IMG/VR virus record: IMGVR_UViG_3300037308_000202
Coordinates: 11,159-75,158 of that record
DNA from: a virus
Direction: 5' to 3' (one strand)
DNA: 64,000 nt
Part shown: piece after piece, positions 2,111 through 55,208 of the stretch
How positions within the stretch are numbered: position 1 is the first letter of the stretch
Layout: the number at the start of each line of letters is the position of its first letter
Made by a program: the position numbers and the translations under genes
The notes under the pieces: model-generated
What the model was told of the DNA's origin: nothing
The model's database searches: none
What the model saw: the letters and a program-made list of their open reading frames with translations, nothing else

Positions 2111-3522
2111 ACGACCGCCCGTAATTGTCGCGGCGCCCCTAATTCCGGCGTCGTCGGTGTAGTGGGAGCGCTTGGCGAAACGATCCCGGCTTCCTCATAA
2201 ATTCGCATGCGCGCCATATCGGCGCGCACAAGCAAAACCTGGTCGGCCGCGTTCTCGCGGTACATCTCCGCGTATACACGCATTACGCCCGCACGCTTTT
2301 CGTCTTCGGTTTGATTCAAACTCCCGAAAAAATCGCCGACGCGCACTTTATCATAACAATCTGCAACCTGGCGTGATTTAATCAGGTGCTCCTCGTAATC
2401 AGCACCGTCGCGCGGGCGCTGCGCTGCCGCGGCCGTCCAGATCGCATAACCACGGTTGGCGAGCGACTTCATGTCGCGAAACGCAGCCTTTTGATTTTCG
2501 TAGTCACTGCGGGCGCGATGACGTGCGTTGAGCAAGTCACCGTAATCGATAATTACCAGCTCGGGCCGCCAATTGCGCGTTTGCCAGAGATCCCGCAAAG
2601 TGTCCTCGATATGCCCTACGTGGTAATCCCACTGGCTGGTGAACCCTTCGACAACCATTTTGCCGCGCAAAAAATCGTAATCACGCTGCGCTCGTTGATA
2701 TGACTCGATATCCACCGTGCCGTGCTTTACGCGTCCATAAATCTCGGCCATCCAGCACGCATCATATCGATTTTCGACTAGCCGGCGGCTGCCTTCCAGC
2801 ACCACGTGCAGAACGTTTTTTAGCGCCACGCCTGCAGCGGCGCGCCCATGTTGGATCAACATCGTTGTTTTGCCGATTTTTGGGTACGCGATCCACGTGG
2901 CCAGCTCGCCGCGTTTCAAGCCACCATCAAAAATCTTGTCCAGCCACGGGAACCCCGTTGGGATCCCTTCCTCGGTCGTATGCAGGTGCGTCCGTTGCCG
3001 CTCGCGAAATTCCAATTCGTCGTAAAACCAACCCCGATCGCGCGTTTCCCAACTGGTGCGCTGCAGCTCCTCCATTCGGCGCGCCATGTGGTCATAGGCT
3101 TTTTCGATCTGACCCCCGTTATAAAGGTCACGACTTTCGTGGAACGTTCGCACAAAAATATTACGCTTGATGAAATCGATCGAGGCATCGCGCAGCCAAT
3201 CCGCATCGCGCACCTGGGCCACGCGGATACGCTCGATCACCGACGACATCACCGCGGCGTTGGCCGCGTCGAGTATTCGGCGCGCCTCGTGGATCAAGAG
3301 CGTAAAGCTCGGCGCCGTGTGGTATTCATTCTGGTAGCGGTAAATTACCGAATAAATCCACCCAAGCGGCTGGGATTCGAAATGGTGCGGCCGTAAATGC
3401 GGCGCGATCGCGATGCAAAATAACGGATCGTCTAAAATCAAGCGAAGCAATGACACCTGAAATTCAGTGTCGAAAGGCATGGGTTGATCGGTCGACGCCT
3501 CGACCGATTTACGTGCAACCAT
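2107..3522 (-). CDS. dnaB: DnaB-like replicative helicase
   Basis: IPTGFPWLDKIFDGGLKRGEL, Walker A AYPKIGKT, Walker B LVIIDYGD, WTAAAAQR. Confidence 0.9.
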   Translation of the reverse strand: MVARKSVEASTDQPMPFDTEFQVSLLRLILDDPLFCIAIAPHLRPHHFESQPLGWIYSVIYRYQNEYHTAPSFTLLIHEARRILDAANAAVMSSVIERIRVAQVRDADWLRDASIDFIKRNIFVRTFHESRDLYNGGQIEKAYDHMARRMEELQRTSWETRDRGWFYDELEFRERQRTHLHTTEEGIPTGFPWLDKIFDGGLKRGELATWIAYPKIGKTTMLIQHGRAAAGVALKNVLHVVLEGSRRLVENRYDACWMAEIYGRVKHGTVDIESYQRAQRDYDFLRGKMVVEGFTSQWDYHVGHIEDTLRDLWQTRNWRPELVIIDYGDLLNARHRARSDYENQKAAFRDMKSLANRGYAIWTAAAAQRPRDGADYEEHLIKSRQVADCYDKVRVGDFFGSLNQTEDEKRAGVMRVYAEMYRENAADQVLLVRADMARMRIYEEAGIVSPSAPTTPTTPELGAPRQLRAVV

Positions 3523-3533
3523 GGGGCAGGCTC

Positions 3534-4157
3534 CTACGCTCGCGCTTGGTGCTGGCTTGCCTCAAGCCGAGTCAGCAAGATACCTACGCCAAAACGACCT
3601 ACCAACGCATGGGCGCAAGCGACCTGTGATGCGCAGGAGCGGCACCAACGGCTGCCATGGTGAAAACCCAGAGTCTCGGGATCTGCCATGCACTCGGCGG
3701 GCGAATGACCCATTCGAAAATGGCGCTCCTTGTGCGCCTCGACGGTCGCCGACAGATCGCGGTTTGGATCGTAGCTGGCGCCGGAACTCCCGCGATCCGC
3801 GTCCACGACCTCACGCGCGCGTTGGCGGAACAACGGCACCACCGCGCTCGCGTACAGGCCTTCCAGGCGCTCGCGTGCCGCTTTGCCCTGCGGCACAAGC
3901 TGGTTGAACTTCGGCGCGTACATCCACCTCGAGCGGGCAAAGACCACTGCCAGCCATCGACGCGGATTGTAGCCATGCTCGGCGCACCAACGCGCCATCG
4001 ACTCGAGCCCGGCCAGGCGCTCCGCCGTCGGCGCAAGCGATTTGATATGCGCGCCGCTCTTGCGGAGATTCTGAACGTGTCCGGTGTGAAAACGGTAGTA
4101 GTTGTAATCGTCGAGCAGCTCAGCGCCACTGACAACCGCAGACGTGGCCAAGGCCAT
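3534..4157 (-). CDS. Hypothetical replication-module protein (Cys/His-rich C-terminus)
   Basis: 207-aa ORF between the two helicases; C-terminal WCRSC...CAH; function inferred only from position. Confidence 0.5.
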   Translation of the reverse strand: MALATSAVVSGAELLDDYNYYRFHTGHVQNLRKSGAHIKSLAPTAERLAGLESMARWCAEHGYNPRRWLAVVFARSRWMYAPKFNQLVPQGKAARERLEGLYASAVVPLFRQRAREVVDADRGSSGASYDPNRDLSATVEAHKERHFRMGHSPAECMADPETLGFHHGSRWCRSCASQVACAHALVGRFGVGILLTRLEASQHQARA

Positions 4158-4288
4158 AGCGCACCGTCCCTTTCGCGCCCTTCACGCGGCGGACCGCGCG
4201 TTCCCAAGGGCCCGGAAGTTAGGCCACAAAACGTCGACGCGATCAAGAAAAATCGCACGGTGTGTAAAAAAGAATGTGTGGGAAATCA

Positions 4289-4318
4289 GCCCCGCGCGCG
4301 GGGAATAGCGCGCGGGGC
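4289..4318 (-). terminator. GC-rich hairpin downstream of the SF2 helicase
   Basis: gccccgcgcgc (4289-4299) and gcgcgcggggc (4308-4318) form an 11-bp inverted repeat; only a weak U-tract follows. Confidence 0.35.
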
Positions 4319-4402
4319 CAGAAAGGGAACGGTGATCCGCATGACGTGCTAGATCAACGTCAGGCCCCAAGATAGCACACCAATCTGCGTTTGCAACGGT
4401 TT

Positions 4403-43497: not shown

Positions 43498-43710
43498 TCA
43501 GCGCGTCGGTGTTGACGGCACAAAAAGGCGCTCGGTTGCGATCTCAATTCCCGGGTTTAGCTGGATCGGCACTTCAACTTGCTTGCCGCACCAGTGGCAA
43601 GCCGCGTGACATTTCCCCTCGGCGTCAAATACGTGCACGCCATCCGTGCGCAAGCGGATCACCGATCCCACACGCTGTAGCAGCCGGTTTTTGCAGTGCG
43701 GACAACGCAC
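43498..43710 (-). CDS. Com-like zinc-ribbon protein
   Basis: RCPHCKNRLL...CHWCG; resembles the Mu Com RCxxCxxLL...CxxC pattern. Confidence 0.55.
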   Translation of the reverse strand: MRCPHCKNRLLQRVGSVIRLRTDGVHVFDAEGKCHAACHWCGKQVEVPIQLNPGIEIATERLFVPSTPTR

Positions 43711-43713
43711 GCG

Positions 43714-46452
43714 TCAGCCTCGCCGCTTGCGCGCTTCCGCGCTATCCGCCAGGTTGGGTTGGGCTGTGACGCGTTTGCGCTGCAGCTCCTCGACGTGCGC
43801 CTTGTTTCGCTCCGCGTCTTTCGCGGGATAGGATCCGTGGTGCTTCGCCGGCACCACAATTTTGACCGACCGCGGGGCCGCCTCTGGGATCTGATAAATC
43901 GCCTTGTCGCGAAACCAATGGTCGATGTCGGTTTCGTCCTGTTGCATCGCCTCCAGCTCCTCGCGCGGCGTCGGTCGCCAACCAACTTGGCGCGCATACG
44001 GTTGCCGCGGCGCCGCGCCCACGGCGTAATTGGAGCCTGTGCCCAGGCTCGCGTTGCCGCGTTGCGCGTGCTCAGCCGCGGGCCCAAGGAGCGCCGCTGC
44101 GGCGCCGTCGCTACCGTGAAACGTGGCCTTGTTGAGCGGCACCACGAGCTTTAGGCGCGCCTTGCTCGGCAATGCGGCTTCAACGTCGGCAACCTCCGTG
44201 CCCTCGAGCCAACGTTGCAACTGATCGATCGTGACCTCGGACACTGCACCGAAAAAATCCGCCGGCGTATCGTAGTGCATCTCATACGCGTTGATCGCGC
44301 TGCGCTGGTCGGCGAACCCCACCATTACCTTGTCCTCGTCGTAGACACCGGTCGCGGGATTTTGCTGGTGAACGATCCACGCTCGAGGCGCCTCGGGGTT
44401 TGGGCCCAAAAACACGTCGACACCATCGCCATCGGCGCCCGTCGTGCGCTCCGCAAACCCGTACGCGCATTGCATGCGCGTCAGCCCTTCGCGGCCCTGG
44501 CTGTCGCGCCAGTGTCGGATCGAGCCCACCGGGTTTTCGATCCGCACCCGAATGCCCTGGTAATCGACCACGTCGGCGACCTCGAGCGCGCGGCGCAGAT
44601 CCTCGCCGCGACGTACGCGCCAATAGGCTTCGCTCTTGCCGTACTCTTCGCCCAGCTCGCCGTCGGGAACCATTTGGCCATCCTCGTTGAACCCCCAGCC
44701 GTCAGGCACCCGGATCAATTGGCACTGGCAGTTATGCACGACCAAACCGTTCGCCGTGAACGAATGCGATCGTGTCGTCAGGTTGTAGACGACACCGCGA
44801 TAAAAATCCGAACTGGCATTGACAATAGGATCAGGTTTTGCGATCCCAGCACAATGGCTAGCGTCTATGGTTCTTTTCGGCGCAAACTCGATATCGCCGT
44901 TATTGTAGATCTGCATTTCCACAAATTGTTGTCGATCCAAGAAATAGCCAGCAACCTCGGCGTCGCTCGCGGGACGATAGTAACGCGGTTGAAGCGGGCT
45001 AACCTCACTCCCAGAAATAAATCGGAGGCCATGCGCAACCGGATGCAGCGTTTGACCCCCGCTGCCCGCCGGCAAAATATCGCCGCCTTCCACGCCACTA
45101 TCCGAGGCAAGCCCAAGCCCGCCCGCTTCATCTTGGCGAGCCTCCGCGCTCAAGTCGGTAAATTCAAATCGACCAACGAACGCTTGGTTTACGAGGCGAT
45201 CTGCGCCCGTGGGTTGCTTCCACAAATCAACTGCCTGGTTGACAGGTTCTTGGTTGATCTCGCCTTCCCCGACATACGTTTGGCCGTCGAAGTGGATGGC
45301 GGTAATTGGCACACCACTCCGCGAAAATCCAAACGAGATTTTCGCAAAGCGCAAATCCTCCAACAACTCGGCTGGCACATTCACCGGATCCAAATTTGTC
45401 AAAAACCCAACCTCCCCGCCGAAATTGATCAAGTCGTCGCCTTGCACAAGTTTTTGTGCAACAACCCAACCCCGATCAGTGTCAAACGGGTGATTCGCCG
45501 TAGCTGTGACCGTCGCGCCTGATGCACACTTGATCGTCGTAATTTCGCCTGAATATAACGACACCCACGTATGGCTAATTGGTTCCCACGTACCCTCGCG
45601 CGACAATACCAACTCGCCCGGGCGTAAATCCTCAATCGCTTTTGCCCCCGTACTTGCCAAAACTTGAGTACCCGGCGGGAAACAGTGCGGGTGAAGCGGC
45701 GGCACTGTCGGCAGCCAGTCGCGCGCTTTGCGTCCAACGTTGGTCCCGTTCCCGTCCAAGTCTTCGAGCGCAAAAATAATTGGCTGCCCGTCACCGCCCA
45801 AATAAAGCCGCTGGCAATGCGGGCATGCGTCGGGCATCGTGCGCACGGCGACTCGGCCTTTACCGCCGTAGCGCTTGCCGTAATATTCCGCAACGCCGCG
45901 CTGCATGGCGAAATGGTTTTCGGTGTTGGCAATCCGCTGCCAATCGCGCGCCCAGTCTTTGGTCGCCCAACCCAGGTCGCTTTTTAGCTGTTTTACCGTC
46001 TCACGCTCGGCAATATTGCGCTCGGTTGCGGTCCTTATTTCATGCCGCATTTGCCGGCGCAAATTGGCGTCGGCTTCGATGAGTAGCGCGCCTGTGTCTT
46101 GAGCCACACGATTACCGAGACCCACGCAATAATCACCTGCGCGCTGGCGCGCAAACGCCATAGCGTCACGTTCAATTGACGTAAGGGGAATCGGATGTTT
46201 GCGCAGATAACGCTTGAACTCCTCATAACCCATTCCTGCAACTTGGGGGTTTTCAGCCGCGGCCAAGATCTGGCCGTAAATATACGCGTCGCCAACGGTA
46301 TCGATCCGCACGTTGATCAACCCAAGCCGGCGCAACCGCGCCAATAAATCCGGCGCGAGCGCGTCAGGGCTAATCGTGTTGGCGATAAATGCCGCGTGGT
46401 AGTTTTCGACAATTTGCCGAATTTCGCGTAATTGTTCCGGTGTGAGCAGCAT
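43714..46452 (-). CDS. MuF-like head morphogenesis protein containing an intein and a C-terminal InPase-like domain
   Basis: DWQRIANTE, DACPHC..LY, PPLHPH|CQCQL (MuF PPLHPxCxC motif split by the intein); C-terminal IENPVGSIR...YG...TTGADGDGVDVFLG...DEDKVMVGF. Confidence 0.88.
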   Translation of the reverse strand: MLLTPEQLREIRQIVENYHAAFIANTISPDALAPDLLARLRRLGLINVRIDTVGDAYIYGQILAAAENPQVAGMGYEEFKRYLRKHPIPLTSIERDAMAFARQRAGDYCVGLGNRVAQDTGALLIEADANLRRQMRHEIRTATERNIAERETVKQLKSDLGWATKDWARDWQRIANTENHFAMQRGVAEYYGKRYGGKGRVAVRTMPDACPHCQRLYLGGDGQPIIFALEDLDGNGTNVGRKARDWLPTVPPLHPHCFPPGTQVLASTGAKAIEDLRPGELVLSREGTWEPISHTWVSLYSGEITTIKCASGATVTATANHPFDTDRGWVVAQKLVQGDDLINFGGEVGFLTNLDPVNVPAELLEDLRFAKISFGFSRSGVPITAIHFDGQTYVGEGEINQEPVNQAVDLWKQPTGADRLVNQAFVGRFEFTDLSAEARQDEAGGLGLASDSGVEGGDILPAGSGGQTLHPVAHGLRFISGSEVSPLQPRYYRPASDAEVAGYFLDRQQFVEMQIYNNGDIEFAPKRTIDASHCAGIAKPDPIVNASSDFYRGVVYNLTTRSHSFTANGLVVHNCQCQLIRVPDGWGFNEDGQMVPDGELGEEYGKSEAYWRVRRGEDLRRALEVADVVDYQGIRVRIENPVGSIRHWRDSQGREGLTRMQCAYGFAERTTGADGDGVDVFLGPNPEAPRAWIVHQQNPATGVYDEDKVMVGFADQRSAINAYEMHYDTPADFFGAVSEVTIDQLQRWLEGTEVADVEAALPSKARLKLVVPLNKATFHGSDGAAAALLGPAAEHAQRGNASLGTGSNYAVGAAPRQPYARQVGWRPTPREELEAMQQDETDIDHWFRDKAIYQIPEAAPRSVKIVVPAKHHGSYPAKDAERNKAHVEELQRKRVTAQPNLADSAEARKRRG
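44731..45684 (-). mobile_element. Intein (318 aa) inserted in the MuF PPLHPH|CxC motif
   Basis: Block A CFPPGTQV (45684), block B TATANHPF, block F/G VYNLTTRSHSFTANGLVVHN ending at 44731, followed by +1 Cys. Confidence 0.93.
44854..45522 (+). CDS. HTH + DUF559/Vsr-like endonuclease encoded antisense inside the intein
   Basis: 222 aa; LSIQEIASNLGVARGTIVTRLKR HTH; ERLVYEAI...VDLAFPDIRLAVEVDGGNWH...KRDFRKAQILQQLGWHIHRI DUF559 signature. Confidence 0.85.
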   Translation: MASVYGSFRRKLDIAVIVDLHFHKLLSIQEIASNLGVARGTIVTRLKRANLTPRNKSEAMRNRMQRLTPAARRQNIAAFHATIRGKPKPARFILASLRAQVGKFKSTNERLVYEAICARGLLPQINCLVDRFLVDLAFPDIRLAVEVDGGNWHTTPRKSKRDFRKAQILQQLGWHIHRIQICQKPNLPAEIDQVVALHKFLCNNPTPISVKRVIRRSCDRRA

Positions 46453-46456
46453 CGCG

Positions 46457-46717
46457 TTACCTCTTGGTACGTTGCGGATGGATCAGCGGGCGAAAGTCAC
46501 ATATCCCCAGCATGATCGGTTGCCCTAACGTAGGGCAAAACCCGAAATGGGTGAACGTCTCGAAAAGCCCCGCCTCGATGTGGCCATGAAATTCGAAAAA
46601 TTCCAAATCCTCGTGGCATTTATGGCACCGGGGGCAGTCCTTTACGGTCTCTTTGATTGGCAGATCAGGCACGCTAATCCACCGATCGAAGCTTTCGCGC
46701 CAGGTCCAAAAGCTCAT
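46457..46717 (-). CDS. Small Cys/His-rich hypothetical protein (real start possibly GTG at 46672)
   Basis: CPRCHKCH...THFGFCP; sits between the giant gene and MuF. Confidence 0.5.
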   Translation of the reverse strand: MSFWTWRESFDRWISVPDLPIKETVKDCPRCHKCHEDLEFFEFHGHIEAGLFETFTHFGFCPTLGQPIMLGICDFRPLIHPQRTKR

Positions 46718-49700
46718 TTACGGCCATCCCAAACAACCGGCCGCCCTCTTCGTAGTCTGCCGGGCCGTAGCCATACGCCGCCAGCGCTTCCTGTACGCGC
46801 TCGTACGCCCAACCATCCGCGTCAGCGATCGGCTTGGTCCAATCGTAAAACTCATCCGCCCGCGCATCCTCGAGCAGGCCCACCGCGCTCGCGGCGCCCA
46901 GCGAGCGGACAAGCGCCTTGAATAGCTCGAGCTGCTTGGCTTCAGCTTCCTTGCGGGTGACCGCTCGACGCGTAACCGGCTTCTGTGTCGGTTGCGTTGG
47001 CGCCTCGAGCTTCGGTGCTTCCGGCTTCGGCGCCTCGGGCGCGGGTGGGCGCATGGCTTCCTCTACCGGCGCCACCTGGGTCGTGTACTGCAGCCGCCAT
47101 CCCGCGGGCAGCCGATGCAGCATCAGCGAGCCGCCGGCCGTCGTCACAAGGTAGCGCGACTCGGCGCGCATCGCGCCCCCACCGAAATCCTTGGCGAGCT
47201 TACGCGCCTCGCCCTCGCTCACGTCCTGCCAGCTCGCGCCGATCGGATTGCCCTCGGCTTCCTGGTGCAGGAACCGCGCACGGTCGCGCAACGCAGGCGG
47301 GAAGTCGTCGATGTGCTGGCCGGCGGTCCGATGGTACTTCGCCGCTTCGTCCAGCTCGGTCTGCGAGTAGGTGCGCTCGCTTGTGTCGTACTTGTGCCGC
47401 GCTGGTTTCTCGGGCTTGGCTTCTGGCTTGGGCGCTTCCGGCTTAGCCTCCTCGGGCTTACGCGCCACCGCCTTGCGGCGCACAACCTTGGGCTCTTTCG
47501 TGGCCACGGTCTCCGGCGCGGGCTCGGGGTTGATCGTCGTCACCGTCACCTTTTCGCCCTCCGCATTTTCCGCGTGCTCGGTCTTGGGCTCCACCGTGCC
47601 GCTCGGATCGCGCCCCATGATTTGCGCGACAATATCGCTAATTTTGATGGGCGCCTCTTGCCACTTTTTCTCCTCTTCGGTCACCGGGCGACGTTCGTTA
47701 ACCATCGCATGCAACCGATATTTCTTACGAATTAAATCGGTAATCGCCTGGTCCATGGAATTGCCGGCGATCGTAGTCCAATAAATATCAACCGCGTTTT
47801 TCTGGCCGATACGATGCGCCCGTGCTTCTGCCTGCGCGATGTCCGCCGCGGTCCACGGTAAATCGTTGAAAATAACCTTGTCAGCCGCGGTTAGCGTCAC
47901 GCCTTCGCGCGCGCTTGGGATCGTCAAAATCATTACCCGTTGGGTCGTATCCTCTGGGCGCTTGTCCGCGTGAAACAGCTTTTTCGCCGCTTCGCGCTTC
48001 TCGAAACTCTCGTCGCCCGTGTGAATTACCGACAACTCGGGCCCAAGCTCCGCGTGCATCATACGGGCAGCCGCTTTCGACTCCGTGAAAATCAGCACGT
48101 TTGATTCAGAGCCTTCGATGATTTCTTTTGCGAACGCGACCGACGCAGGCGCTTTCGCCTGGGCTAACGCAAATTTGACCTTGCCGTATTCTTCGATTGA
48201 TCGCTTGGTGAAGAAATCGACCCACTCTTGGGGATCCATATCTTCCTTCATTTCCTCCAATTCGACCTTTGCATCCTCAGCGGCTTTTTCGCCCAGCGCG
48301 ATGGCTTCCGCCTCACTCTTACCGGCTTCGAGCGCATCAGCTTTCGCAAAATATTTCGCGTTACTGATAAATTTTGCCGGCGACGTGGTGAGGTCCGGCG
48401 CCTCGTCGACCTCCTGGTGAAGAATCGACGTGTTCTTTTCGGGAAGGTCTTTCAACACCTGCTTTTTACTGCGCTGCAAGTAAAATTCACGCATCTTTTT
48501 GACGGTGCCGCCAATCGTCGTGTGCTGGATCTCCTGCGCGTTGCCAAACAGACCCGGCCGCACCAACTGCACCTGCTCAAACAACTCCCCGCGCCGATTT
48601 TTGATTGCCGTGCCCGACAACAGGATCCGGTGTGCCGATTCCTTGGCCAAGCGCTTGATAGCTTGCGTCACCTTCGCCTTTGGATTTTTCATCCGGTGCG
48701 ATTCGTCAACCACCAGCGTATCGAACCCCGCACCGTCAATGTACGGCATGAATTTTTCGATGCTCTCGTAATTGATCGATGCCAAATTCGCCGTATCAAG
48801 GCCAAGCCTCGTGCGCACCATTTTGCGCTTGTCCTCTTCGGTCGCACCCGGCATGTCCTTGTCGACCTGGCGCTTGATCTTGAGCAGCGCCGCAGAATCA
48901 AGCTCGATCGAATTGAACGAACCCGGGAAAAATCGATGGCTTTCCTCGATCCAATTACGCCGAACCATTTTCGGCACAACCGCGATCGCCCGCTTTTTCT
49001 CGGCGACCACGTAACCAAGGCACTGCGCCGTTTTGCCGAGGCCCATTTCGTCGCCAATCAACGCACGACCGTTGGTCTTCTGCAGGAAGCGCACGCCCTC
49101 ATTTTGGTAGGGGTACAGCGTGATCCCTGGGGCCAGCTTGTCCACCAGCTCGGGCAGCGGCTTTTGCAACGTCGTCTGCCGCTCTTGCTCCTGGCGCTCG
49201 GCGTCCTCGAGGCCTTCGGTAACGATCTGCCAATGCGGCGCACGCTTGCGAATTTCCTCGATCGCCTGCTTGGCGACTTCCAAATCGAAAACGTAGCGCT
49301 CCCACGTGCCGCGCTCGATACCCTTGGGATCCCAAAAAACAATTCCCTTCAATATACCAGAATCGTTTTTGAAGACTTCCGCAACCGTCTTGTCGGCGCT
49401 CTGCCGGAATTCAAACGAGCCGTCCTCTGGGTGCCAACGCATGGCGACCACATCGCGCAGCTTGCCCTGGCGCAGCGCTTCAAACACGCCGTCGACCGGG
49501 GTTTTTCCCATCGCCTTCGCGCGCTCAAGCGCGCCCGTGGCCTGCTTCGCCGCTTCCTCTTTCGCCTTTTCTGGTGACTGCGACAAAATTTCGGGTAGCT
49601 CGCCAAACTCGGTATCGGCGGGTAGTGCCTCCGCAAGCGTCGTCAAAAACTTTGCTTGGTCTTTGATTTTGTCGAAATACTCGCGCTTGAGAACAAACAC

Positions 49701-52700
49701 GCCATCGGTAAAAAACCAGCCTTGTGGCTTCAGAATATTGCGGTATAGGTGCTGCCAGGCGTCGGTCGGCAACCGACCCGACAACCGCATATTGAGCGAT
49801 CCAAATTTCGGATGAATTTCGAAGCTCATCCGATAATCGCTCACGCGATCCGCACAGCCCGCGCGGTAATAATCCTCGCCACCGATCTGGCGCTTGTATT
49901 TCTTCAACATGGCGCGCATGGCGCGCACGTCGCCCACAATCGAGGGCCAGCGGTGCATATCGAACGTATTTAAACCAACATTATCTTTGGTGGTCGGATC
50001 CATCATTTGGTGCTGCGCCAGCGCCGTGCCTTCGCGGATCAACCACTCTTTCGCCTCTTCCTCGCCCCAACGCTCCCCGGGATCCTCGCTCGCCCGGGGC
50101 GGCGCGCTTGGCGCGGGTCCGTGCTCCCCGGGCTCTTTGGCTTCCGCGTACTCGTACTGCCATTCACCGTGCGGGCCACGCCAACGCCGAACGTACTTAT
50201 GACCAGCGCGTTCCTCGCCCTCGGCCTTTTCCAGCTCGGCGTCGTCTTCGTCGTCGTCGACCTCCACGACATCATTGGCTAGCGCTTCGTCGCACGTGAG
50301 CATCTCTGCCAGCTCCGAGCCGTCGCCCGCGGACAGCCGCCCGGCTGCCTTGCGCAAGGCGTCGCGCTCGTCAAGCCAGTCGAGCGCCTTTTTCAGCGCA
50401 TGCGTTTCCTTGATCGCACTGACCAAGCGCGAAATCGCGTCATTTATGCGATCGCGTTCTTCGTCCATAGGGTACGGGTGCCCAGCCCAAGGATCGTCCG
50501 GGTCTTTTTTCATAATGTCGCGGTACGCCATCGCAAAAAAAGCCGCGGCTGCTTGACCCGAGGCAACCCCAGTCCCGTCAACCAGGTAAGCATTTGACCG
50601 ATCCTGTGTGGTCAATTGGTCCTCAGCCCACGCCTCAAAACAACGCGCAAACAATTCGGTCGGCCGCTCCCAGTATGGGGTTTTCGATGAAGCAGAGCTA
50701 AATTTTTTGCCCCAACCGCTGGTATTCATTTGGCGCGATCGCTCGAAATAACTCGATCGTTTCCAGCTATTGGATTCTTCCGATAGTGCGCGCCACTCGG
50801 CCCGCTCGCCCTGCGTCAGGTGCTCGTTTTTTGCCAACCGTCGATCCAAAACCATCATCCGCCGATATTTTTTGGCGGTTTCCAAATCCGCCCAATGGAT
50901 TAAATCCATAACCTCGGTCATCGCGTCCCGCACTTGCGGGTGTATCTGTCCGTGCGACCCATTGGACAAAAACAACTCGGCTTGGGTCGACTCTGGGTTT
51001 GCGGCTTTTGCCAAAATACTGTCAAGCGCGTGGCCATACTCATGCGCTAAACAGCCACCGCCGGCAAATTTCGTCAAATTGATAATTTCGCCGTCGGATT
51101 CGTAATGCGCCGACCCACCCAAAAATCCGGTGCCGCGCCCACCAAACGAAATTGACAGGCGACCATTCAAGCTCACCGCCTCATCCGGCAACCCAACAAT
51201 GTCGGCCAAATCGAAAAGCGCACCGTGCGCGGCCTTCAAGTGGGTAGCAGCGTCGTCGTCGGAAACCCAATCGCCAAATTGAACATTTTTCAACCGAAAC
51301 GCTTTTGCCAGCTCTTTTTCGTCGGCCATTGGCACATCGCGTCCGCCCACACGTTCCACGCGACCGGTCATTTGCCGTTGCCAACGGAACCGCTTTAGTC
51401 GGCCCACCGCGCGCTGCTTGCCTTCAAGTAGCGCAAACATTTGGGTTTCTTGTTCGTTTGCCGCTACCTCTTCACGCTGCCATGCCCTAGCCTGCCGATA
51501 GGCGTCTTGTAGGCCTTTCGGCCCTGTTACTACACCATGCGGCGTAGCAACTGCCTTGACCATGCGCTCACCTAACGCCGATAGCTGCAGAGCGTATGGG
51601 TTTTCACGTAACTGCTCTAACTGCCGGCTCGTCGCGTTAAAACCCGCATATACGGTATACCCATGGCTTTGGTTTAACTCGATTTTTATATCGCGGCCCA
51701 TTAAATCAGGCATCGCAATTTTCCAACCACGATAGCCATAATCATCGCCTGCCGCGTCGGCGTACTCGCTCCTAATTTCGCGAATAGCCCCGTCGCGCTT
51801 CGCCCATTCCTTCAACTGGCTATCGTTGTCAACCGCCGCCATCATCCGTTTTTCGATTATACGCGCCTTTGTCACACCTTCGGCGGTAAGCTCGGCACGT
51901 ACCTTGCTCAGGATTTCAATACGTCGTGTGTACTGCTTGTTATGGATATCCTGTGCTTCTTTTTTTAACGCGGCATATTCGTCATATGTGATATTTAGAG
52001 GCATACCACGCCGTAACATTTCCGCATCACGCGCGCGAAATAGCGATTCCTCCGTAACGTTTTGTCTTACGGCTTTAAACCCCAAAACCAAATAATGCCA
52101 TTCAGTCAAAAACGCTTCAAAATCTTCGTGGGTGCGTATGTGCTCATACGAACGCGCAAGAAAATCGATCCCATTCATATACAATTGTCGCGCCGCCAAA
52201 CTGTCCGGCGGCTCAGGTGCGATCAACCGTTCAACTGCCGAACGCATCAAAATTGCCCCCGGCGACCAACCTTGCCCTAACAAATCCTCGGGCTCCCACG
52301 CTGGCAACAATTTCGATTTTTTGCAAAAACGCTTTTGCTGGATCGGCGTCAACGCCGCCAAATCGGACGCAGATCGCGGCTCAGCAAGATCGGCACGCGA
52401 TCCGTAAACGTGCTCGCCGACCTCGACGTGCTTTCGGCGCGAGCCCTTGCCGCGCTTGCTCGGCTCCGCGGGCGCCTCCAGCGTCGGCAGGGCCGCGGGC
52501 TCGTCTGTCTCTTGTGGCGTGGCGTCGGTATCCACGTCGGGCTCGGCGTCGTGCGCCTCGGCGTTGGTGTCGGTGTGCAACGGCGTCGCCTCGATCGGCG
52601 TTTCTGGCGTCTCGGTCGTGGGCTCTTTGGTTGGTTCCTCCGGTACATGCTCGGCTTGCGCCGTAAACGAAAAGCCCAACTGTTGCGGCTCTTGCGGTTT

Positions 52701-55208
52701 CGACGCCGTTTTCGGCACTGGATCCGCGGCCACCGGTTCGGCGTACTGTTCGACGATTTGCACCTCGAGCGCTTGGCGCGTCATCCGCTCCCACTGGTAC
52801 AGGTGCATCGGCGTGCCGCGCTTGGTCTCCGCCGTCGTCTTCTGCTCCGCCTTCACCCGCTCGAGCAGCTCCCCGAGGTACCACGGCGGGCGCTCAGATA
52901 GGTCAGCCACGATTTGGCCCTCGTCGGCCTTTGGAACGCTCCGCAGCTCAACCTCGGGTTGGGACGTGGGCTTGGCTTGCTGCGCCTCACCCTGGGCCAG
53001 CGAGGGCGTGTCCTCGGCGTACTCGTAGTGCCACTCGCCGCCTTTGCCCCGCCACCGCTTGAGGTACTTGTGCCCGGGCCGCTCGAGGCCTTCACCGCCG
53101 GCCTTCTCCAAGCCGTCCTCGTCCTCGCCATCCTCGAACGCCTTGCGCAAGCCACCGCCCGCATGGGCAACTACCTCGAAGGTCGCACGCGCCCATTCAG
53201 GCAACGATCGCGGGCCTTTGGTCACGTATTTTGAAAATACTTCAGCAAAATACTCGCTCGCGTTATTCCCGCCATAAAACGAAACAAATGGCGAAACCAT
53301 CGGATGGTCCACCATATTTTCGAAAAACTCCTCTACCCAATGGCGTGGAACCGTATGCGTCGCAAATTCGAACGAATCAAAATTATCCGCGACCTGTTCA
53401 GCACCATAAACACCGCTCGCCCGTAAACGCGCCTGCATTGCAGGAACATTTATTTCGTCTGCGTCAGGATCAATAACTGCGTCGCGCAGAGCATGAATTT
53501 CTGAAGCGTTCAGTTTCGTACTACGATTAGCGATTTCTGTTACCCAAATCTCACGCGCGTGAGCAGGCAAATTACGATAATAAAATCGGTGCCCCACCTC
53601 GTGCGCTAAAACCCCCGTAGTTACCGGGCCGCGACAGTTACTAAACGCGGCCGTGTGCAGCATTATCTCACCGCTTTTTTCCTGACCTTCGCCTTTGACA
53701 CTAACAACATGGTATTGACCCGCCGCACCGTATTTAGACAGCGGATTGAATTTGATTTTTCTACCGCGTAAATGAATCGTAAGATCCTTTACCGCCCCAG
53801 AGAAACCGGCTTTATTTACCGCGTCAAGCTCACGCCGAATTTGCGCCAGACTGTCCGAAACTGGCCTAATTTTTTCGTCCAAGCTCGCCGACCGGTGTAC
53901 TACTACTTTCACATCCCCCGCGCGCGTCTGCTCTATGGGCGCATCGATTATTTCTAGCTCATGCTCAGCATTAGCCATTTGGGTGGCCCGGTAATCCACC
54001 AAGGCCAAGCTTAGCCAGTCCTGCATTTCAGCGATTTTTTTATTCGCATGAGCCGCTAGACGCTTTTTCGTCTCAGGGGCATCGACTTGCACGATTTTGG
54101 TGTACCACTGTTGAAGCGCGTTTGGCTTTTCCTCCCTGTGGATCATGTACCAGCCATCATATAAATCGCTCATAATGGCTCGCGCTTTTTCCAATTCCTC
54201 ACGCGCCTTTTCAGCGGTTAATTTTCCCGGGTGATCCTCCTCATGCGTTGCTTGGCGGGTTTCCTCGTTAATTACATTACCAAGCGCGTCGAACCACTCT
54301 TTCGCAGACTTGAAGCGGTTATGCAGAATATCGCGATCCCGCTTCCAATCATAATCCGGGCTTTTTACAGCCGAAATCAACTCGCGTAACTCAGTTACCG
54401 CGTGCCCAACCACCTCCTGCAAAACACCCCATTGCACGTGGCCAGGCATCAACTTGTGTGGGTCGTAAATCCGCCTGATTTTGTCATCCCGTGCTAGGAT
54501 TTTGTCGAGCTGCTTTTTCTCCAAACCCTGGTAACGCGCATCCATTGCTTGGCGAGCAATTTCGTTAAACTGCTGGTAATGCGTGCGCGCAAACGCCTGG
54601 TGCAGAAACCCCTCGCTTACCTGCAGCTCGTGGCCTGTCTCGTCGTGGCGCACGGTCAGCATGCGCTCGCCGTTGGGCGCCTTTGATTCACCCAGGACCT
54701 CAAAATGGCCCATTTTCCCCTTGTGCTCGACGCGCACCTTGTCGCCGACTTTGTACGCCGCCGTGGTGTTGTCATGCGTCAGATCGTAAGCGTAGGCGTA
54801 TTTCGGGGGCGGGCTCGAATTGTTCCAACGACGCAGGTATTTGTGGCCAGCGCCTTTTTCGAGAAAATCGCTCGCCAGCAAACTGTCGAGCCAAACCTCT
54901 TCCTCACCCAAATCCGCGTCAAGGCTTTTGACCGCAAAATCCAGCGAAGTCGAATGGCCGCGGTCCGATAATACGGCCTCAATTTCGCGCGTCATCAAGC
55001 CCATTAACCGGGTGTATTCATCCTGCGCGATCGCCGCCATCTCCCGCATTGCGGGGTATTTCAGCGTGTGTTCTTTTTTCGGCAATGCCTTGTAAAGCGC
55101 ATCCGCGAGATCCGGCGCCTCGGCCTGCAGCCGAAACGACAACGTTTCAACAAATCGCGTGGATTTTTCAGTCAATTCGCCGGGCTTCGCTTCGATACGA
55201 ATACGCAT
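46674..55208 (-). CDS. Giant polyvalent protein (2844 aa): zincin metallopeptidase + LPD1-like + SNF2/SMARCAL1-like helicase
   Basis: HEVGH...SEYFAE (53589-53603); VQFGDW...ALFDLAD..G...SLNGRL...HEYGHALD...YW..PTELFARCFE (LPD1-like); LYPYQ, DEMGLGKT, DESH, SGTAIKNR, QAEARAHRIGQ (SNF2). Confidence 0.88.
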   Translation of the reverse strand: MRIRIEAKPGELTEKSTRFVETLSFRLQAEAPDLADALYKALPKKEHTLKYPAMREMAAIAQDEYTRLMGLMTREIEAVLSDRGHSTSLDFAVKSLDADLGEEEVWLDSLLASDFLEKGAGHKYLRRWNNSSPPPKYAYAYDLTHDNTTAAYKVGDKVRVEHKGKMGHFEVLGESKAPNGERMLTVRHDETGHELQVSEGFLHQAFARTHYQQFNEIARQAMDARYQGLEKKQLDKILARDDKIRRIYDPHKLMPGHVQWGVLQEVVGHAVTELRELISAVKSPDYDWKRDRDILHNRFKSAKEWFDALGNVINEETRQATHEEDHPGKLTAEKAREELEKARAIMSDLYDGWYMIHREEKPNALQQWYTKIVQVDAPETKKRLAAHANKKIAEMQDWLSLALVDYRATQMANAEHELEIIDAPIEQTRAGDVKVVVHRSASLDEKIRPVSDSLAQIRRELDAVNKAGFSGAVKDLTIHLRGRKIKFNPLSKYGAAGQYHVVSVKGEGQEKSGEIMLHTAAFSNCRGPVTTGVLAHEVGHRFYYRNLPAHAREIWVTEIANRSTKLNASEIHALRDAVIDPDADEINVPAMQARLRASGVYGAEQVADNFDSFEFATHTVPRHWVEEFFENMVDHPMVSPFVSFYGGNNASEYFAEVFSKYVTKGPRSLPEWARATFEVVAHAGGGLRKAFEDGEDEDGLEKAGGEGLERPGHKYLKRWRGKGGEWHYEYAEDTPSLAQGEAQQAKPTSQPEVELRSVPKADEGQIVADLSERPPWYLGELLERVKAEQKTTAETKRGTPMHLYQWERMTRQALEVQIVEQYAEPVAADPVPKTASKPQEPQQLGFSFTAQAEHVPEEPTKEPTTETPETPIEATPLHTDTNAEAHDAEPDVDTDATPQETDEPAALPTLEAPAEPSKRGKGSRRKHVEVGEHVYGSRADLAEPRSASDLAALTPIQQKRFCKKSKLLPAWEPEDLLGQGWSPGAILMRSAVERLIAPEPPDSLAARQLYMNGIDFLARSYEHIRTHEDFEAFLTEWHYLVLGFKAVRQNVTEESLFRARDAEMLRRGMPLNITYDEYAALKKEAQDIHNKQYTRRIEILSKVRAELTAEGVTKARIIEKRMMAAVDNDSQLKEWAKRDGAIREIRSEYADAAGDDYGYRGWKIAMPDLMGRDIKIELNQSHGYTVYAGFNATSRQLEQLRENPYALQLSALGERMVKAVATPHGVVTGPKGLQDAYRQARAWQREEVAANEQETQMFALLEGKQRAVGRLKRFRWQRQMTGRVERVGGRDVPMADEKELAKAFRLKNVQFGDWVSDDDAATHLKAAHGALFDLADIVGLPDEAVSLNGRLSISFGGRGTGFLGGSAHYESDGEIINLTKFAGGGCLAHEYGHALDSILAKAANPESTQAELFLSNGSHGQIHPQVRDAMTEVMDLIHWADLETAKKYRRMMVLDRRLAKNEHLTQGERAEWRALSEESNSWKRSSYFERSRQMNTSGWGKKFSSASSKTPYWERPTELFARCFEAWAEDQLTTQDRSNAYLVDGTGVASGQAAAAFFAMAYRDIMKKDPDDPWAGHPYPMDEERDRINDAISRLVSAIKETHALKKALDWLDERDALRKAAGRLSAGDGSELAEMLTCDEALANDVVEVDDDEDDAELEKAEGEERAGHKYVRRWRGPHGEWQYEYAEAKEPGEHGPAPSAPPRASEDPGERWGEEEAKEWLIREGTALAQHQMMDPTTKDNVGLNTFDMHRWPSIVGDVRAMRAMLKKYKRQIGGEDYYRAGCADRVSDYRMSFEIHPKFGSLNMRLSGRLPTDAWQHLYRNILKPQGWFFTDGVFVLKREYFDKIKDQAKFLTTLAEALPADTEFGELPEILSQSPEKAKEEAAKQATGALERAKAMGKTPVDGVFEALRQGKLRDVVAMRWHPEDGSFEFRQSADKTVAEVFKNDSGILKGIVFWDPKGIERGTWERYVFDLEVAKQAIEEIRKRAPHWQIVTEGLEDAERQEQERQTTLQKPLPELVDKLAPGITLYPYQNEGVRFLQKTNGRALIGDEMGLGKTAQCLGYVVAEKKRAIAVVPKMVRRNWIEESHRFFPGSFNSIELDSAALLKIKRQVDKDMPGATEEDKRKMVRTRLGLDTANLASINYESIEKFMPYIDGAGFDTLVVDESHRMKNPKAKVTQAIKRLAKESAHRILLSGTAIKNRRGELFEQVQLVRPGLFGNAQEIQHTTIGGTVKKMREFYLQRSKKQVLKDLPEKNTSILHQEVDEAPDLTTSPAKFISNAKYFAKADALEAGKSEAEAIALGEKAAEDAKVELEEMKEDMDPQEWVDFFTKRSIEEYGKVKFALAQAKAPASVAFAKEIIEGSESNVLIFTESKAAARMMHAELGPELSVIHTGDESFEKREAAKKLFHADKRPEDTTQRVMILTIPSAREGVTLTAADKVIFNDLPWTAADIAQAEARAHRIGQKNAVDIYWTTIAGNSMDQAITDLIRKKYRLHAMVNERRPVTEEEKKWQEAPIKISDIVAQIMGRDPSGTVEPKTEHAENAEGEKVTVTTINPEPAPETVATKEPKVVRRKAVARKPEEAKPEAPKPEAKPEKPARHKYDTSERTYSQTELDEAAKYHRTAGQHIDDFPPALRDRARFLHQEAEGNPIGASWQDVSEGEARKLAKDFGGGAMRAESRYLVTTAGGSLMLHRLPAGWRLQYTTQVAPVEEAMRPPAPEAPKPEAPKLEAPTQPTQKPVTRRAVTRKEAEAKQLELFKALVRSLGAASAVGLLEDARADEFYDWTKPIADADGWAYERVQEALAAYGYGPADYEEGGRLFGMAVNELLDLARKLRSVD

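Follow-up and report, generated by a model that had tools for sequence, protein, structure and literature searches.

Full-length inteins with "anti-sense VSR-like" endonucleases have been described in actinophage proteins (Gosselin, Arsenault & Gogarten, bioRxiv 10.1101/2025.01.02.630785). Their endonucleases gave an HHpred match to 3R3P, the sense-frame middle of these inteins was unstructured, and the supplementary table of the preprint lists gene 5 of phage Malisha as "minor capsid, MuF-like, VSR -1 ORF". Here we analyze an element of this kind in a 64,000-nucleotide stretch of DNA, called the window throughout, which belongs to an 85-kb record of an uncultivated virus (IMGVR_UViG_3300037308_000202) from a freshwater metagenome. 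On the minus strand of the window a gene for a MuF-like head-morphogenesis protein is interrupted by an intein, and on the plus strand the same codons carry a nuclease gene. Judged by its sequence features, the element belongs to the antisense VSR-like homing endonuclease (HEN) intein class, and we put at about 80% the probability that it is a mobile intein of that type whose nuclease homes to intein-free MuF alleles. A reading made from the letters of the window alone (the sequence-only reading) had suggested, with reserve, that the architecture might be undescribed; this does not hold, as the layout is already in the preprint.

Vsr-like nucleases had been connected with inteins earlier. Dassa et al. 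(2009) reported free-standing Vsr-like endonuclease genes lying between the halves of split inteins and noted that no Vsr-like domain was known from within an intein; the origin proposed for such fractured genes is the invasion of an intein by a free-standing endonuclease gene (PMC2677866). The EDxHD homing endonuclease I-Bth0305I (PMC3239194; PDB 3r3p) comes from Bacillus phage 0305phi8-36, where a group I intron within recA encodes it. Endonuclease open reading frames (ORFs) antisense to inteins are also known for the LAGLIDADG family, in Synechocystis dnaX and a Chloroflexus SpoVR-like gene (Gorbalenya 1998; Gogarten et al. 2002; both cited in bioRxiv 10.1101/2025.01.02.630785).

Two genes in one set of codons

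The host gene occupies 43714..46452 on the minus strand and was identified from its ORF, Pfam and PHROG matches. Its frame is open throughout, from 46452 to 43714, and encodes a precursor of 912 amino acids (aa) that is predicted to be reduced to ~594 aa once spliced. Reading across the ORF gives ...TVPPLHPH|CFPPGTQV...TATANHPF...GLVVHN|CQCQLI, in which the intein splits the HPH|CQC motif of the MuF-like/InPase head protein. The intein itself (44731..45684, minus strand; host residues 257-574) is 318 aa long and is of class 1, with Cys1, T62xxH65, H317-N318 and a +1 Cys. This class is indicated by the splicing residues, by curated intein models and by comparison with an intein-free allele, which shows the insertion to be exact and in frame. 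C1, T62, H65, H317 and N318 are invariant across 12 homologues. Two NCBIfam models scored above their cutoffs, intein_Nterm TIGR01445 with 26.9 bits (cutoff 24.5) and intein_Cterm TIGR01443 with 21.6 bits (cutoff 15.6), while Pfam Intein_splicing and Hint_2 matched below their gathering scores.

An AlphaFold2 (AF2) model divides the intein into three parts. The N-terminal splicing subdomain of the HINT fold (residues 1-89, 45418..45684, minus strand) is beta-rich, with a pLDDT score (predicted local distance difference test) of 80-94, and the C-terminal subdomain (residues 278-318, 44731..44853, minus strand), which holds blocks F and G and the TIGR01443 match, scores 86-92. Between them lies an insert (residues 90-277, 44854..45417, minus strand) that is a read-through of the antisense nuclease gene and is predicted to be disordered, residues 90-258 and 263-277 being modeled at pLDDT <50. 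Searches with Pfam and NCBIfam gave no LAGLIDADG or HNH match anywhere in the intein sense frame and no family match of any kind in the insert, and the endonuclease is not in frame with the splicing domain as it is in canonical inteins. The guanine-plus-cytosine (GC) fraction of the intein region is 0.49-0.59, against 0.60-0.70 in the flanks.

The gene on the plus strand (44854..45522) encodes a 222-aa protein, a putative homing endonuclease with an N-terminal helix-turn-helix (HTH) and a Vsr/DUF559 nuclease of the EDxHD type, as indicated by Pfam, AF2 and the ratios of substitution rates given below. Pfam MTES_1575 (PF18741) matched with 48.3 bits (gathering score 38.2, E 1e-12) and DUF559 (PF04480) with 24.0 bits (gathering score 20.6). 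An AF2 model built on an 11-sequence alignment had a mean pLDDT of 85.8 and consists of three HTH helices, a helical linker and an alpha/beta core. The HTH module (residues about 14-48, 44893..44997, plus strand) is formed by helices 14-23, 28-35 and 39-48, all at pLDDT >90; residues 17-50 gave weak matches to HTH and sigma-70 region 4 families in Pfam and NCBIfam, and an IAxxLGVSRGTI motif is conserved here in the nuclease family. A further helix at 187-203 is confident, and the tail from residue 212 falls to pLDDT <50.

The nuclease core (residues 107-180, 45172..45393, plus strand) includes the motif AVEVDGGNWH at 45283-45312 and the residues D135, E146, D148, H153 and D162, which are invariant in 11 nuclease sequences. 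With the model as query, Foldseek placed the catalytic domain of I-Bth0305I (3r3p) at the top with a probability of 1.00; Vsr (1cw0, 1vsr) and the DUF559 protein 3hrl came next. A family-profile search of solved structures also gave 3r3p first (E 1.2e-5). A single-sequence search of the solved structures with P0001 found no match, and 3r3p was reached by the family profile only. In the profile alignment D135, E146, H153 and D162 stand opposite D196, E206, H213 and D222 of I-Bth0305I, which are among its catalytic or active-site residues (PMC3239194). The plus-strand protein is thus predicted to be an I-Bth0305I-like EDxHD nuclease with a Vsr fold, for which homing cleavage is putative.

The two frames share their triplets exactly (offset 0, register 0), intein residue i and nuclease residue j being related by i = 278 - j. 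The disordered intein residues 90-277 are the exact complement of nuclease residues 1-188 (188 codons). The remaining nuclease codons, 189-222 (45418..45522, plus strand), overlap the folded HINT N-terminal subdomain at intein residues 56-89; intein block B lies opposite nuclease residues 213-216, and the nuclease stop TGA (45520-45522) is the TCA of intein Ser55. The sequence-only reading had proposed the complete intein splitting the MuF motif, its unfolded middle without LAGLIDADG or HNH, the HTH and Vsr-like nuclease on the plus strand, the shared triplets and a dual-coding stretch near block B, and these are borne out by the models, matches and coordinates above. Only the length of the dual-coding stretch needs correction: the overlap is real but counts 34 codons, not ~40.

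Selection on each strand

Ratios of nonsynonymous to synonymous divergence (dN/dS, omega) were compared between the window and L028, a close relative (N-extein 87% identical) that allows an unsaturated comparison; all pairwise values in this paragraph refer to this pair. Omega in intein residues 1-55, the part of the HINT N-terminal subdomain free of overlap, was 0.15 in the intein frame and 0.78 in the antisense frame. Across the insert (residues 90-277, nuclease 1-188) the order is reversed, with 0.89 in the intein frame and 0.25 in the nuclease frame, and in the HINT C-terminal subdomain (residues 278-318) it returns to 0.15 and 1.7, respectively. Of the 106 differences in the insert, 54 are at the first position of intein codons, the third of nuclease codons. 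In the overlap (residues 56-89) the intein-frame omega was 0.055 and only 6 of 102 nucleotides differ, compared with 41 of 165 in the adjoining codons of the same subdomain; this scarcity of differences fits a double constraint, although the length of the nuclease tail differs among family members. Selection in this pair thus changes strand at the domain borders. Family-wide, the nuclease core differs at nuclease codon positions 1/2/3 in proportions of 0.49/0.41/0.65, and 40.5% of the amino acids are identical in the nuclease frame, against 23.5% in that of the intein. These values indicate that the nuclease protein is under purifying selection, in line with what the sequence-only reading had implied for dN/dS measured in both frames.

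Long antisense ORFs are frequent in the window, and the plus frame is open back to 44155, both of which could be taken to mean that the plus-strand ORF is a chance open frame opposite a GC-rich gene. This explanation is refuted by Pfam matches above the gathering scores, a confident fold, start codons and catalytic residues that are conserved, an omega of 0.25 with its third-position excess in the nuclease frame, and the presence of the ORF in AT-rich phages. As for the frame upstream of the nuclease ATG, it is open for 233 further codons (44155-44853, plus strand), on the strand opposite the C-extein. In AT-rich relatives a stop codon stands just upstream of the nuclease start, and the open frame looks like an accident of GC-rich sequence rather than an N-terminal extension.

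When two opposite frames share their triplets, antisense stops can arise only from TTA, CTA and TCA, each of which has synonymous alternatives. It follows from the genetic code that a nuclease gene in this register could leave the opposite strand free of stops without any change to its own protein sequence. The sequence-only reading had stated that it must avoid these codons, and it does. In the nuclease genes of 12 loci none of the three codons was observed, where about 46 were expected from the codon use of neighboring genes (the joint P for this avoidance treats related loci as independent). The window alone has 0 against 3.9 expected (P = 0.016), and two AT-rich phages, L007 and L011, gave P = 1e-7 and P = 3e-6. 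The complete lack of these codons points to an intein frame held open by selection. Across the insert the amino acids of the intein frame are neutral, yet the frame is kept stop-free by selection.

The same counts bear on the possibility that MuF is here a "fractured gene", the intein being functionally split with its halves splicing in trans and the open frame across the nuclease incidental. Fractured genes are the known context in which Vsr-like nucleases occur with inteins (PMC2677866), and the disordered insert with its neutral amino acids would suit such a split. Against this, there is no intein-frame stop in the 12 loci where about 46 would be expected, phages of 34-39% GC included, nor is there a conserved internal start for the C-terminal half, and we regard a split intein as very improbable. 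Equally improbable, in our view, is an intein that no longer splices, with a head protein that tolerates a 318-aa insertion. The insert splits the invariant H-x-x-C-x-C motif of the host protein, and Cys1, TxxH, HN and the +1 Cys are kept in almost all loci, L016 being the exception. From these conserved catalytic residues and the omega of 0.15 in the HINT parts we infer that the intein splices the protein.

Distribution, proposed homing and genomic setting

A word search of 5.8 billion proteins returned only two close relatives of the nuclease, both of them inside an intein at this MuF site and in antisense orientation to it. Scans at the DNA level added nine viral contigs, one contig of a metagenome-assembled genome (identical to one of the viral contigs) and five other metagenome contigs. 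In all, the layout is found in about 20 divergent phage loci with GC fractions of 0.34-0.69, always at the MuF site and in register 0. The antisense carriers in register 0 are L001-L011, L015-L017, L021, L022 and two cultured phages, Gordonia phage Malisha (L030; OP434458 gene 5) and Salmonella phage SaI_NFG_5577 (L031; PQ488694, head morphogenesis gene). Every relative that spans the whole nuclease has it antisense, in register 0 and inside an intein that follows H-x-[HNW] and ends in HN|C (KN|C in one case), and the nuclease start codons share alignment columns across loci. The element in Malisha gene 5, at a MuF site and in a register identical to those of the window, was the best tblastn match of the window nuclease in an isolate phage (33% identity over 85% of the length). 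Distant DUF559 matches (L012, L014 and L023-L026) lie outside inteins and were set aside.

Among the 120 closest relatives of the MuF protein most are about 600 aa (identities 50-87%) and without an intein, and 14 contain, inside an intein, the mirror motif of AVEVDGGNWH. Several relatives depart from the full element. The intein frame of L010 (5887-6687) is intact at 267 aa, whereas its antisense nuclease lacks the HTH region and has no start codon at the aligned position, and this locus may represent a decaying stage. The MuF relative P0184 (740 aa; N-extein identity 58%) carries a 147-aa mini-intein at the HP[HN]|CxC site that leaves no room for a nuclease and could be either an ancestor or a deletion derivative. 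In some family members (L016, L021, L002 and L030) two tandem HTH modules precede the nuclease core and the inteins are longer (350-390 aa), which suggests a modular change of the DNA-binding part. The L016 intein (2114-4345, minus strand) ends in ...LVAKN|CRC, with Lys replacing the usual penultimate His, and may have a variant splicing chemistry or be inactive.

One relative, L029, is an exact intein-free allele reading VVPPVHPH|CQCQLIRV (...catccgcat|tgtcagtgc...) with no other gap. It fixes both borders of the intein and is a natural instance of the junction that the sequence-only reading had reconstructed. Extein dN is 0.07-0.08 between L029 and the intein-bearing L028 and 0.09-0.13 between L028 and the window. 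Since the exteins of L029 are nearer to those of L028 than the latter are to the window, at least one gain or loss of the intein must have occurred among close relatives. The empty allele, the full elements, the degenerate nuclease and the mini-intein match the stages of a homing cycle. In such a cycle the precursor would be translated through the insert and the intein would excise itself, restoring MuF. The nuclease, made from its own plus-strand transcript, would cut MuF alleles lacking the intein, near ...CACCCGCAC|TGCCAGTGC..., in co-infecting relatives (the target being taken from the L029 junction), and repair of the cut allele would copy the whole element in.

Several results, in addition to the treatment of related loci as independent noted above, weigh against this account. 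The dS of the intein (0.24-1.08) lies only moderately under that of the exteins (1.35-1.58, close to saturation), and this leaves recent horizontal transfer conjectural; the pattern of presence and absence is compatible with either gain or loss. Contigs of two DNA runs, including a second sample, had no intein-less joint and no variants. A search of RNA runs found none that contains this phage, a sigma-70 consensus scan of 44300-45900 found no promoter-like site, and no consistent Shine-Dalgarno sequence was found before the nuclease start across loci.

It could also be that the nuclease is real and selected for something other than homing, such as attacking or excluding rival phages or another phage function, with the intein as a safe harbor. 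Purifying selection shows that the protein matters, not what its role is; some lineages look vertically inherited (bioRxiv 10.1101/2025.01.02.630785), and DUF559/MTES_1575 domains also occur in anti-phage proteins, for example ProA and Hhe. On the other hand, about 20 divergent phages all have the nuclease at one site in one gene, always inside the intein, the closest relative with a solved structure is an established homing endonuclease, and the empty allele, degenerate copy and mini-intein fit a homing cycle. Homing and the cutting of intein-free rivals can, moreover, coexist. We consider a purely non-homing role unlikely and prefer the mobile, homing intein.

The sequence-only reading had proposed that the nuclease might be expressed early from the plus strand, uncoupled from the late MuF protein; this would be one possible use of the layout. 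With regard to expression of the nuclease, a TTGACA hexamer is present at 44819..44824 (plus strand), and the sequence and the promoter scan agree with the earlier remark that it has no -10 partner. It is part of a conserved TT[GA]ACAAT[AG]G upstream of the nuclease start, antisense to the IV(N/S)V strand of the intein, and this motif also lies upstream of the start codon in L005-L009. In several loci it gives a TACAAT box 9 nucleotides before the nuclease ATG; a role for it in promoting a leaderless message is speculative. Terminator-like matches in the scanned region were within shuffle expectation. A tentative and rather doubtful extension is that the antisense layout, instead of being an accident of invasion, acts as a timing device, the nuclease being transcribed against the late structural operon and made early, with collision or pairing of the messages tuning the supply of head protein. 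The message would then be leaderless or nearly so, possibly started at a -10-like TACAAT/GACAAT box whose sequence also encodes the block-F strand, and the early enzyme would coincide with co-infecting genomes open to cutting and repair.

The MuF-like gene stands within a run of roughly 50 kb of minus-strand phage structural genes, and the element is present as a single copy in the 85-kb record. Pfam InPase (PF18823) matches the C-terminal portion of this protein with E 5e-35 (MuF residues 628-750; 43714-44600, minus strand). The Pfam scan gave no match of the window protein to PF04233 (Phage_Mu_F) at E up to 1; a relative with 58% identity to it does carry this domain. Assignment to MuF (IPR006528) agrees with the PHROG minor head protein matches, the position in the structural operon and the HxxCxC motif. 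Relatives of the protein exchange further C-terminal modules (PF01743, PF06414, PF04607 and PF18763), and this variability would make the MuF-like head protein a carrier for variable enzymatic domains. Directly upstream of the gene is an ORF of 2844 aa (46674-55208, minus strand) with motifs of SNF2-type helicases, HExxH stretches like those of metallopeptidases and repeated GHKY(L/V)RRW segments, which looks like a giant polyvalent protein, possibly packaged in the virion. Just downstream is a 70-aa ORF with two CxxC pairs resembling a zinc ribbon (43498-43710, minus strand), and L028 has a 69-aa gene at the equivalent position.

Comparison with known systems

Canonical LAGLIDADG and HNH inteins share with the window element a HINT domain interrupted at the same structural position by a mobility module, and a sporadic distribution. 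The mobility enzyme of the window, in contrast, lies outside the intein polypeptide, and what remains in frame is a disordered insert with an omega of 0.89. The anti-sense LAGLIDADG ORFs, as far as they are presented in the preprint that cites them, also place the endonuclease opposite the intein strand, with a different nuclease family and different host genes. I-Bth0305I has in common with the window nuclease a Vsr-like core with aligned D, E, H and D, and an N-terminal DNA-binding region followed by a C-terminal nuclease. Core identity is about 21%, however, and I-Bth0305I uses NUMOD motifs where the window nuclease has an HTH; its gene is carried by a group I intron and does not lie antisense to an intein.

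The fractured genes of Dassa et al. (PMC2677866) likewise have a nuclease of the Vsr/EDxHD type as a gene of its own inside an intein, and likewise in phage genes. They differ in that the intein frame of the window continues without a break across the nuclease gene of the opposite strand, that is, the intein is not split. The arrangement in the window supports the "splicing first" view, in which inteins gain mobility by capturing free-standing endonuclease genes.

In the records of Malisha (OP434458) and SaI_NFG_5577 (PQ488694) the host gene alone is annotated over the antisense nuclease ORF. Gene callers retain just the longer ORF, so the nuclease gene is left without annotation, and annotation pipelines thereby miss a widespread nuclease.

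The inteins described by Gosselin et al. (2025) are the closest counterparts, sharing a contiguous class-1 intein, a host gene assigned as MuF-like (IPR006528), an antisense nuclease in the -1 register and a Vsr-like fold. The host in the window, by contrast, is an uncultivated freshwater phage from outside the actinophages, with a MuF that is joined to an InPase domain. The searched text of that preprint contained no per-frame dN/dS and no test of stop avoidance. Added here are omega values for each frame, the avoidance of antisense stop codons, an exact empty allele and carriers outside actinophages, a Salmonella phage among them. The element ranks as one of the clearest natural examples in which the two strands of a single set of codons each spell a functional gene.

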